NCBI RefSeq assembly: GCF_003334765.1
Contig: NZ_QOWT01000002.1
Length of the DNA: 64,000 nucleotides
Origin: Escherichia coli
GTDB taxonomy: Bacteria; Pseudomonadota; Gammaproteobacteria; Enterobacterales; Enterobacteriaceae
Direction: 5' to 3' (one strand)
The stretch's first letter is position 1. Each line of letters starts with the position of its first letter. Shown here in pieces: positions 58,459 to 60,608 of the stretch. The translations under genes and the position numbers were made by a program. The notes beneath the pieces were generated by a model. It searched no databases, had not been told where the DNA came from, and worked only from the letters and a program-made list of their open reading frames with translations.

Positions 58459-58475
58459 AGTGGTCTGACCTGATC
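58459..58475 (-). promoter_or_regulatory. Candidate FadR operator upstream of fadIJ
   Basis: agtggtctgacctgatc contains the FadR core TGGTCnGACC, about 30-45 nt upstream of the fadI start. Confidence 0.65.
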
Positions 58476-58540
58476 ATAGTCTTAACCATTTTTTTACATT
58501 TAGCCAAGTGGAGAAAAGGGAAAGTGGGAGCTATGACACA

Positions 58541-58594
58541 GAGAGAAAAGAAGAAGAGAAAAGAAAACGCCCCTGCCAGCAACTGACAGGGGCG
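58541..58594 (-). terminator. Rho-independent terminator of yfcZ with a long polypyrimidine tail
   Basis: Hairpin gcccctg...caggggc (58568-58594); on the minus strand it is followed by a roughly 27-nt U/C-only tract (plus-strand purine run 58541-58567). Confidence 0.7.
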
Positions 58595-58611
58595 TACGTA
58601 CCCGAGAGGAA

Positions 58612-58896
58612 TTAACGCAGACCCAGCTGGAAAATCAGCATTTCAGCTTCGCAGGCAAAAGTGAAATCGATATCCAGGCGCACACCGTCAGACTCTTCAG
58701 TGAAAGTCGGGGTGATTTTGCAAGGTTCAGATTCCACGCTACGGGCTTTTTCAGTCAGCGCCGCCAGCGTTTGCTCTGCTTCTGCGCGGTTTGCAAACAC
58801 GCGGCTGTAAGACGCGGTGCAGTCGGAGTTGTCCATAATGGTGCCAACATCCATACAGCAGCAAACCGGGGTTTCATCAGCACTACATTTACTCAT
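58612..58896 (-). CDS. yfcZ: UPF0381 protein YfcZ
   Basis: ORF matches YfcZ; 94 aa from MSKCSADETPVCCCMD (ATG 58894-58896); the ORF extends 8 codons further upstream. Confidence 0.9.
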   Translation of the reverse strand: MSKCSADETPVCCCMDVGTIMDNSDCTASYSRVFANRAEAEQTLAALTEKARSVESEPCKITPTFTEESDGVRLDIDFTFACEAEMLIFQLGLR

Positions 58897-59141
58897 CGTT
58901 GATTTCCTCTGTATGTGCACCCAAGGTGCCAGATAAACGTTGTGGATATTTTACGCTTCCGGAAAGTGCTGCTCCAGTTGTTAATTCTGCAAAATCGGAT
59001 AAGTGACCGAAATCACACTTAAAAATGATCTAAAACAAAATTCACCCGAATCCATGAGTGCGCCACCTCCAAATTTTGCCAGCTGGATCGCGTTTCTTAG
59101 ATCATATTTGAAAAAAGATAGAAACATACTTGCAACATTCC

Positions 59142-59158
59142 AGCTGGTCCGACCTATA
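59142..59158 (+). promoter_or_regulatory. FadR operator 1 of fadL
   Basis: agctggtccgacctata matches the FadR consensus (CTGGTCnGACC) and the known fadL operator. Confidence 0.85.
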
Positions 59159-59165
59159 CTCTCGC

Positions 59166-59182
59166 CACTGGTCTGATTTCTA
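59166..59182 (+). promoter_or_regulatory. FadR operator 2 of fadL
   Basis: cactggtctgatttcta: second, weaker FadR-like site 24 nt downstream of the first. Confidence 0.7.
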
Positions 59183-59267
59183 AGATGTACCTCAGACCCT
59201 ACACTTCGCGCTCCTGTTACAGCACGTAACATAGTTTGTATAAAAATAAATCATTGAGGTTATGGTC

Positions 59268-60608
59268 ATGAGCCAGAAAACCCTGTTTACAAAGTCTGCT
59301 CTCGCAGTCGCAGTGGCACTTATCTCCACCCAGGCCTGGTCGGCAGGCTTTCAGTTAAACGAATTTTCTTCCTCTGGCCTGGGCCGGGCTTATTCAGGGG
59401 AAGGCGCAATTGCCGATGATGCAGGTAACGTCAGCCGTAACCCCGCATTGATTACTATGTTTGACCGCCCGACATTTTCTGCGGGTGCGGTTTATATTGA
59501 CCCGGATGTAAATATCAGCGGAACGTCTCCATCTGGTCGTAGCCTGAAAGCCGATAACATCGCGCCTACGGCATGGGTTCCGAACATGCACTTTGTTGCA
59601 CCGATTAACGACCAATTTGGTTGGGGCGCTTCTATTACCTCTAACTATGGTCTGGCTACAGAGTTTAACGATACTTATGCAGGCGGCTCTGTCGGGGGTA
59701 CAACCGACCTTGAAACCATGAACCTGAACTTAAGCGGTGCGTATCGCTTAAATAATGCATGGAGCTTTGGTCTTGGTTTCAACGCCGTCTACGCTCGCGC
59801 GAAAATTGAACGTTTCGCAGGCGATCTGGGGCAGTTGGTTGCTGGCCAAATTATGCAATCTCCTGCTGGCCAAACTCAGCAAGGGCAAGCATTGGCAGCT
59901 ACCGCCAACGGTATTGACAGTAATACCAAAATCGCTCATCTGAACGGTAACCAGTGGGGCTTTGGCTGGAACGCCGGAATCCTGTATGAACTGGATAAAA
60001 ATAACCGCTATGCACTGACCTACCGTTCTGAAGTGAAAATTGACTTCAAAGGTAACTACAGCAGCGATCTTAATCGTGCGTTTAATAACTACGGTTTGCC
60101 AATTCCTACCGCGACAGGTGGCGCAACGCAATCGGGTTATCTGACGCTGAACCTGCCTGAAATGTGGGAAGTGTCAGGTTATAACCGTGTTGATCCACAG
60201 TGGGCGATTCACTATAGCCTGGCTTACACCAGCTGGAGTCAGTTCCAGCAGCTGAAAGCGACCTCAACCAGTGGCGACACGCTGTTCCAGAAACATGAAG
60301 GCTTTAAAGATGCTTACCGCATCGCGTTGGGTACCACTTATTACTACGATGATAACTGGACCTTCCGTACCGGTATCGCCTTTGATGACAGCCCAGTTCC
60401 TGCACAGAATCGTTCTATCTCCATTCCGGACCAGGACCGTTTCTGGCTGAGTGCAGGTACGACTTACGCATTTAATAAAGATGCTTCAGTCGACGTTGGT
60501 GTTTCTTATATGCACGGTCAGAGCGTGAAAATTAACGAAGGCCCATACCAGTTCGAGTCTGAAGGTAAAGCCTGGCTGTTCGGTACTAACTTTAACTACG
60601 CGTTCTGA
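59268..60608 (+). CDS. fadL: Long-chain fatty acid outer-membrane transporter FadL
   Basis: ORF matches FadL with signal peptide; 446 aa from MSQKTLF (ATG 59268); an in-frame ATG two codons upstream (59262) gives 448 aa. Confidence 0.95.

Follow-up and report, generated by a model that had tools for sequence, protein, structure and literature searches.

Introduction

The sites at which FadR and FabR act on the fatty-acid genes of Escherichia coli were established in the 1990s and 2000s, together with their physiology, repression of uptake and β-oxidation and activation of unsaturated fatty-acid synthesis. The two fadL operators, OL1 and OL2, were reportedly described by DiRusso and co-workers in 1993. 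Both fadL sites bind FadR with similar affinity, the isolated site 2 at about 50 nM, and oleoyl-CoA releases the protein; the same study placed the transcription start site (TSS) of fadL at a distance of 95 nt ahead of the older start codon, gave the separation of the two sites as 8 bp and validated by EMSA a CRP site "centred 157 bp upstream" (Feng & Cronan 2012, PMC3460868). FadR also shifts the gel-shift probes fadL-FadR1, fadL-FadR2 and fabB-F (PMC4259882). A review gives the FadR consensus as aaCTGGTCnGACC(T/A)Gtt, lists fadL and fadIJ as direct targets of FadR repression, the latter via a site overlapping a TSS that is only predicted, and records FadR activation of fabB (PMC9329746). For FabR, the core of the recognition sequence is ACAnnTGT and fabB is a confirmed direct target, binding and repression coming from ChIP in Salmonella and from E. 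coli studies cited in the same paper (PMC4804515).

In the mechanism that emerges, apo-FadR, a GntR-family dimer, binds 17-bp imperfect palindromes. At fadL, two such operators, which cover the -10 hexamer and the start of transcription, block RNA polymerase, and at fadIJ one near-perfect palindrome over the probable -10/+1 region would do the same, until long-chain acyl-CoA releases FadR and uptake and β-oxidation are derepressed. At fabB, FadR bound at about -40 would instead activate transcription, while FabR, a TetR-family repressor, on an adjacent palindrome in the promoter spacer would tune unsaturated fatty-acid synthesis, as at fabA.

Here a 64-kb stretch of E. coli DNA (the window) carrying fabB, fadIJ and fadL was compared with these systems. 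An earlier reading of the raw sequence, the original prediction, had called FadR operators at fadL and fadI and a FabR site next to a FadR site at fabB. We put at about 95% the probability that the sequences so called are the canonical cis-regulatory elements by which the fatty-acid regulon of E. coli is controlled. The analysis covers the presence of the sequences, their statistical enrichment, their positions relative to the genes, their conservation across species and their identity with published probes; for the fadL TSS, and for binding and the release of FadR by its ligand, it relies on the literature.

The fatty-acid genes of the window

The roughly 2.6-kb stretch around the fadI and fadL sites is 100% identical to that of E. 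coli K-12 MG1655, and every one of the 5,426 complete E. coli genomes contains this stretch. RefSeq annotation bears out the gene calls for fabB, fadIJ, yfcZ and fadL (Table 1), and each string quoted in the original prediction lies where it was said to lie. The degradative and biosynthetic FadR targets, said there to sit within about 20 kb of each other, span 19.6 kb from fabB to fadL. The interval given for the prediction, 58459-60608, consists mostly of yfcZ and fadL coding sequence and not of operators. Since a strong intrinsic terminator ends yfcZ at 58595-58567 (-), fadIJ has a promoter region of its own at 58434-58566. With a provisional offset of 2,400,060 between the window and MG1655 U00096.3, which agrees with the position of a published PdhR box, the FadR sites would fall at 2,458,518-534 (fadI), 2,459,202-218 and 2,459,226-242 (fadL) and 2,439,694-710 (fabB), and the FabR site at 2,439,675-692.

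Table 1. Genes, terminator and regulatory sites in the 64-kb window.
Feature	Coordinates	Strand	Basis and remarks
fabB CDS	38347-39567	-	RefSeq annotation; beta-ketoacyl-ACP synthase I
fabB FabR operator, GGCGTACAAGTGTACGCT	39615-39632	-	follows the FadR site after a 1-nt gap; occupies the presumed -35/-10 spacer
fabB FadR activator site, GGCTGATCGGACTTGTT	39634-39650	-	PWM rank 1; centre 75 nt upstream of fabB ATG
fadI-fadJ operon	54977-58431	-	RefSeq annotation; thiolase and multifunctional beta-oxidation subunit
fadI	57121-58431	-	RefSeq annotation
fadIJ FadR operator, ATCAGGTCAGACCACTT as read along fadI	58458-58474	-	near-palindromic; 11/13 on both strands; PWM rank 2
yfcZ intrinsic terminator	58567-58595	-	terminator scan; 13-bp stem, then T-tract; strong
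yfcZ	58612-58896	-	RefSeq annotation
CRP site, AGTGACCGAAATCACA	59002-59017		centre -157.5 from fadL TSS; highly conserved block
fadL FadR operator 1, AGCTGGTCCGACCTATA	59142-59158	+	-25 to -9 from published TSS; 12/13 consensus; PWM rank 3
fadL FadR operator 2, CACTGGTCTGATTTCTA	59166-59182	+	-1 to +16, covers TSS 59167; 10/13; PWM rank 25
fadL	59268-60608	+	RefSeq annotation; older annotated start = ATG 59262

The original prediction had itself judged its observations to be known biology, and we agree that this is textbook E. coli regulation: the sites, the regulators and the physiology are already known and nothing new is added to them here. The value of the exercise is that of a quality check, in that gene calls and strands are right and real operators are recognisable from raw sequence.

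Two other candidate features were set aside. An IS1 element present in one strain lies downstream of fadL and not in the operators. A resemblance to Spot 42 within 58300-59400 reached 20.8 bits in an Rfam scan against a gathering score of 80, and this sub-threshold match was taken as chance.

FadR motifs across the window

Mismatch scans of the window used the classical FadR consensus, ANCTGGTCNGACNTNTT. With at most two mismatches, only three loci in the 64 kb matched: fabB at 39634-39650 (-), fadI at 58458-58474 on both strands, and the first fadL site at 59142-59158. The double match at fadI arises because this site is nearly palindromic. These four matches compare with 1.11 expected, and none of 100 shuffled sequences reached four. 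Over the 13 specified positions of the consensus, the first fadL site scores 12, the fadI site (on each strand) and the fabB site 11, and the second fadL site 10.

The original prediction had named a scan with a position weight matrix (PWM) as its check. To avoid circularity, the FadR matrix was trained on the sites of fadD-1, fadD-2, fadBA and fabA, all four of them from outside the window and taken from a published probe table (PMC4259882). Among the approximately 128,000 positions of the window, fabB, fadI and the first fadL site took the top three places in that order, all of them in promoters of fatty-acid genes, but the second fadL site came only 25th and was not separated from chance. 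A strand-symmetrised version of the matrix handled asymmetric sites more poorly (rank 7 for fadL site 1 and 275 for fadL site 2), and the oriented matrix was kept.

Given a degenerate 17-bp consensus, chance likeness has to be weighed, above all for the second fadL site. When three mismatches were allowed, 21 matches were found against 13.5 expected, a count reached by 6 of 100 shuffles; with three mismatches and a PWM rank of 25, fadL site 2 is therefore not distinguishable from background on motif alone. For the other three sites chance is excluded, as they are the three best of all positions scored and each lies in the promoter of a fatty-acid gene. The case of fadL site 2 is decided by evidence of other kinds, to which we return below.

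Two FadR operators at the fadL promoter

The first string assigned to fadL by the original prediction, agctggtccgacctata, lies at 59142-59158, and its match to the FadR consensus holds at 12/13. The second, cactggtctgatttcta, is present at 59166-59182 and its binding by FadR is published, but as a motif match it is weak (10/13). The older start codon, taken with the published distance of 95 nt, places the TSS at 59167. Operator 1 overlaps the -10 hexamer TATACT (59155-59160), so that the two operators lie over -10 and +1; both are classic repressor positions and fit repression. This hexamer, like those of fadI and fabB, was read manually, and consensus promoter scans called none of the three promoters.

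Compared with E. coli fadL OL1 and OL2 as described by Feng & Cronan (2012, PMC3460868), the sequence and position are identical, the geometry matches the TSS and the CRP site, AGTGACCGAAATCACA occupying the position of the CRP site in that paper, and there is no substantive difference. The operators are 24 bp apart from centre to centre, with 7 bp (59159-59165) between the 17-mers here versus 8 bp in the paper. The probes fadL-FadR1 and fadL-FadR2 map exactly to 59132-59166 and 59159-59193.

Across the 5,426 E. coli genomes, identity in the yfcZ-fadL spacer never drops below 95%, and footprinting within the species is therefore powerless. For a comparison between species, one genome per species was scanned with the FadL protein, which gave 80 Enterobacteriaceae loci. 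In nearly all of these 80 species the two fadL operators can be recognised, always 24 bp from each other. The block from site 1 to site 2 is 41 bp long in 80/80 species and the core of site 2, ACTGGTCTGA, is invariant in all 80, while the 7-bp spacer between the operators occurs in 12 variants. In site 1, variation is concentrated at positions 1 and 2 and at the central N (conserved at 0.72, 0.62 and 0.71, respectively), and no other position falls below 0.96; site 2 varies at positions 15 and 17. Substitutions thus fall mainly at positions that are degenerate in the consensus or already mismatched to it. The consensus is degenerate at its central N and at position 2, position 17 of site 2 is already off-consensus in K-12, and position 1 of site 1 is the sole specified consensus base that varies. 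Mean conservation is 0.94 and 0.95 for the two sites and 0.83 for the entire spacer. Because the entire fadL spacer is fairly conserved, the pattern of substitution is a stronger argument than the means. This quantitative cross-species footprint of the operator positions that are free to vary is one mildly useful addition to what was known.

These data settle most of the doubt over fadL site 2. Despite its modest motif score, its core is unchanged in 80 species at a constant distance from site 1, and the isolated site binds FadR (PMC3460868). Given that conservation and the published binding, a chance match is very unlikely here, and as an account of the sites overall chance has a next to negligible probability. 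The assignment of fadL site 2 is supported by context, conservation and literature, not by its motif score.

Conservation of the fadL sites could have another origin, namely core promoter elements (-10 and TSS) or a stem in the 5' mRNA, with no protein operator involved. Site 1 does contain the -10 hexamer and site 2 does cover +1, and a stem is possible between GGUCUGA (59170-76) and UCAGACC (59192-98), the alignment fold pairing 59170-75 with 59193-98 in 78-80 of the 80 sequences. However, CTGGTC in site 1 is invariant even though it falls between the -35 and -10 elements, a stretch that has no promoter function, and the central N of this site, where conservation drops, is likewise unspecified in the FadR consensus. 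Nor is the leader fold remarkable (z = -0.2), and the stem is without covariation because both of its arms are invariant. We consider this explanation highly improbable as a replacement for FadR operators, although part of the conservation of the fadL sites could reflect constraint on the core promoter, with site 1 over the -10 hexamer and site 2 over the TSS.

A probable single FadR operator at fadIJ

FadR sites are conserved in orthologous promoters not only at the 80 fadL loci but also in 74 fadI upstream regions and in 25 unique fabB upstream regions. At fadI, the original prediction had quoted agtggtctgacctgatc, which is present at 58459-58475. The FadR site it pointed to is real, but the string is shifted by 1 nt: FadR's own frame is 58458-58474, and the PWM gives the frame first proposed a score of -12.4.

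Between the operator and the fadI ATG lie 26 nt, and a candidate -10 hexamer, TATGAT (58478-58473), runs into the operator; this hexamer and the TSS that it implies are putative. Across the 73 loci that retain fadI next to yfcZ, the operator ranks first for conservation among the 162 17-mers of the fadI-yfcZ spacer, with a mean of 0.98 against 0.76 for the rest, and what variation it shows falls towards its ends and on its central base. Like the single operators of fadBA, fadE and fadH, it is one 17-bp palindrome near the start codon in a repressor-type position; whereas those operators overlap the promoter, the fadIJ TSS is a prediction (PMC9329746). A full-text search of the accessible literature for the operator string found no direct FadR binding assay for this site. 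Its motif, position and conservation, together with the published FadR-dependent expression, support its assignment as the probable fadIJ operator.

Adjacent FadR and FabR sites at fabB

The composite site at fabB was described in the original prediction as a FabR site followed by a FadR site, and agcgtacacttgtacgcc is indeed followed by gaacaagtccgatcagcc within 39615-39650. That order, however, is the view from the + strand; in fabB's own direction FadR is distal and upstream, and FabR is proximal. The 3' end of the FadR site overlaps a weak -35-like TTGTTC, a manual reading which, with the fabB start site, is presumptive. The likeness to the fabA activator site noted in the prediction is close, 15 of 17 positions being identical and only the first two bases differing. 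The gel-shift probe fabB-F maps exactly to 39604-39660 and encloses the FadR site.

The FabR operator GGCGTACAAGTGTACGCT contains the ACAnnTGT core and is identical to the fabA FabR palindrome, AGCGTACACGTGTTAGCT, at 14 of 18 positions. A search with that palindrome allowing at most three mismatches missed the fabB site, which has four, but the degenerate pattern GCGTACANGTGTNNGCT found it as its single occurrence in the window, where 0.39 would be expected. The fabA and fabB promoters have in common the block CTGATCGGACTTGTTC-N-GCGTACA-N-GTGT-NN-GCTAT (32/36), which takes in both the FadR and the FabR site and is arranged alike with respect to the gene, in order as well as in spacing. Their FabR palindromes differ by four substitutions; the flanks barely align and are not related, and the downstream genes, fabB (KAS I) and fabA (dehydratase), are unrelated.

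The cross-species set for fabB was drawn from metagenome contigs with a search pattern anchored in the N-terminal codons of fabB and not in the operator. To raise diversity, the E. coli Ala codon was excluded, and 25 unique upstream regions were obtained. In contigs with a FabB identity of 83% or more, a FadR-type site was found at -76 to -84 wherever upstream sequence sufficed, with one degraded variant. The FabR core lies at a fixed 23 bp downstream of the start of the FadR site in those enterobacterial orthologues whose upstream sequence reaches far enough, and mean conservation in enterobacterial orthologues is 0.955 for the FadR site, 0.956 for the FabR site and 0.79 for the remaining spacer. 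Among the metagenome contigs, FabB orthologues of at most 74% identity did not have the composite at that position.

Possible recognition of the same boxes by LldR and PdhR

Other GntR regulators of the FadR subfamily, LldR and PdhR, might use these boxes besides or instead of FadR, in which case lactate and pyruvate signals would be read there too. Precisely the two boxes at fadL are given as LldR boxes (11/14 and 9/14) in the gSELEX paper on LldR, which also reports an effect on fadL expression, and there is a PdhR gSELEX peak in the fadI-yfcZ spacer. The fadI FadR operator matches the PdhR box at 10/14 positions, versus 7/14 for the box that the authors of that study placed in the fadI CDS (58411-58427), 47 bp away. 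On the whole, the sites described here match the LldR box, AAnTGGTCnGACCAnTT, and the PdhR box, AATTGGTnnnACCAATT, at 7 to 12 of 14 positions.

The gSELEX peaks were obtained in vitro, however, and their intensities at these loci are low relative to cognate targets, 6.6 versus 62.9 for LldR. Since the consensus of the "LldR box" is in essence that of FadR, weak cross-binding in vitro is to be expected. All of these boxes have a TGGT-N3-ACC core, but cognate LldR and PdhR sites carry an AATTGG...CCAATT periphery that the present sites lack. FadR regulation, by comparison, has decades of genetic and biochemical support. We therefore regard use of the boxes by LldR or PdhR as rather unlikely, at perhaps the level of a minority view, and retain FadR as the regulator: the gSELEX signals suggest cross-recognition of FadR operators and do not challenge the FadR assignment.

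The coincidence of the published PdhR and LldR gSELEX signals with FadR operators is nevertheless a second mildly useful addition. It leaves some room, on our estimate a good deal short of even odds, for the idea that the fadL and fadIJ operators may be shared landing pads for FadR, PdhR and LldR that integrate acyl-CoA, pyruvate and lactate signals, and that the PdhR peak at fadI may stem from the FadR operator and not from the box in the coding sequence.

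Conserved elements between yfcZ and fadL

Conservation of the yfcZ-fadL spacer peaks in the fadL 5' UTR, at 59193-59231, and not at the FadR operators. This segment may contain OmpR sites (Higashitani 1993). The palindrome TGTTACAGCACGTAACA found there forms a predicted hairpin that is present in 79 to 80 of the 80 Enterobacteriaceae species, with two compensatory changes. The same palindrome is an old predicted CRP site, at which no CRP binding was found in PMC3460868.

The 'fadL' CRP site validated by EMSA in that study lies at -157.5 from the fadL TSS, too distant upstream for normal activation according to its authors. 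It is about 70 bp upstream of the likely divergent yfcZ promoter. Given its distance from the fadL TSS and its proximity to that promoter, the CRP site may serve yfcZ, or both yfcZ and fadL.

A further conserved block, TTTGCCAGCTGGATCGCGTTTCT, overlies the only consensus promoter match in the region, TTGCCA-18-GATCAT. The FadR-half-site-like match within it reaches scores of up to 11.3 in Raoultella and Enterobacter. This block may act as a second promoter of fadL, or it may be the site of another regulator.

Features discussed in the text, in window coordinates; signed positions count from the fadL TSS at 59167
Feature	Position	Strand	Remark
Palindrome TGTTACAGCACGTAACA	about +49 to +65, within 59193-59231		fadL 5' UTR
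Conserved block TTTGCCAGCTGGATCGCGTTTCT	59076-59105		includes FadR-half-site-like AGCTGGAT
CRP site	59002-59017		validated by EMSA
Candidate yfcZ promoter -10, TAAAAT	58953-58948	minus	divergent; invariant
Purine-only tract	58520-58566	plus	45 nt
FadR operator of fadI	58458-58474	minus	10/14 to PdhR box, 12/14 to LldR box
Proposed PdhR box	58411-58427		within fadI CDS; 7/14
CTTACAGAG, fabB leader	39575-39583	minus	also in fabA leader

Two forms of the fadL coding sequence

The fadL coding sequence (59268-60608) is sharply dimorphic among E. coli genomes, with nucleotide identity to the window of 60-80% in 983 genomes and 80-90% in 229. Unlike the coding sequence, the yfcZ-fadL spacer, operators included, is at least 95% identical in every E. 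coli genome. In the divergent allele, compared here in E. coli E69 and two Escherichia sp. isolates (loci L034, L037 and L040), FadL is identical to that of K-12 over residues 1-81 and only about 77% identical beyond them, with loop indels; over this latter part its nearest relative is Enterobacter FadL (85%). For the K-12 allele, identity is 92-96% with E. albertii, Citrobacter amalonaticus and Salmonella arizonae. Published papers deal with FadL as a phage receptor, and the dimorphism probably arose by recombination together with selection on a phage-receptor protein.

Insertion elements were also seen. In E. coli UMNF18 (L142 2543-3240) the fadL stop codon is closely followed by an IS1, which is thus not in the regulatory region, and strain WEM25 (H2) carries an IS3-family element inside the stretch matching the window.

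Sequence matches upstream of fabA and fabB

The leaders of fabA and fabB agree in more than the FadR/FabR block: both carry the same CTTACAGAG immediately ahead of the start codon region (about 367-375 of the fabA locus L082), which may be chance or a common translational signal. FabB orthologues of 72-74% identity on metagenome contigs (L089, L139, L099, L097 and L114) are without the enterobacterial composite. On the opposite strand of the same contigs, 155-175 nt upstream, there is a FadR-type site, AACTGGTCTGCTCTT.., that is very strong (PWM 11.6-17.4) and may belong to a divergent neighbour gene.

The fadI-yfcZ intergenic region

The PdhR gSELEX paper attributed its fadI-yfcZ peak to a PdhR box within the fadI CDS. 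At a distance of 47 bp, the FadR operator fits the PdhR box better and also agrees with the LldR box at 12 of 14 positions; judged on sequence, it would therefore be the likelier origin of the peak.

The purine-only tract, a pyrimidine tract on the yfcZ/fadI strand, separates the terminator of yfcZ from the promoter of fadIJ and is only moderately conserved.
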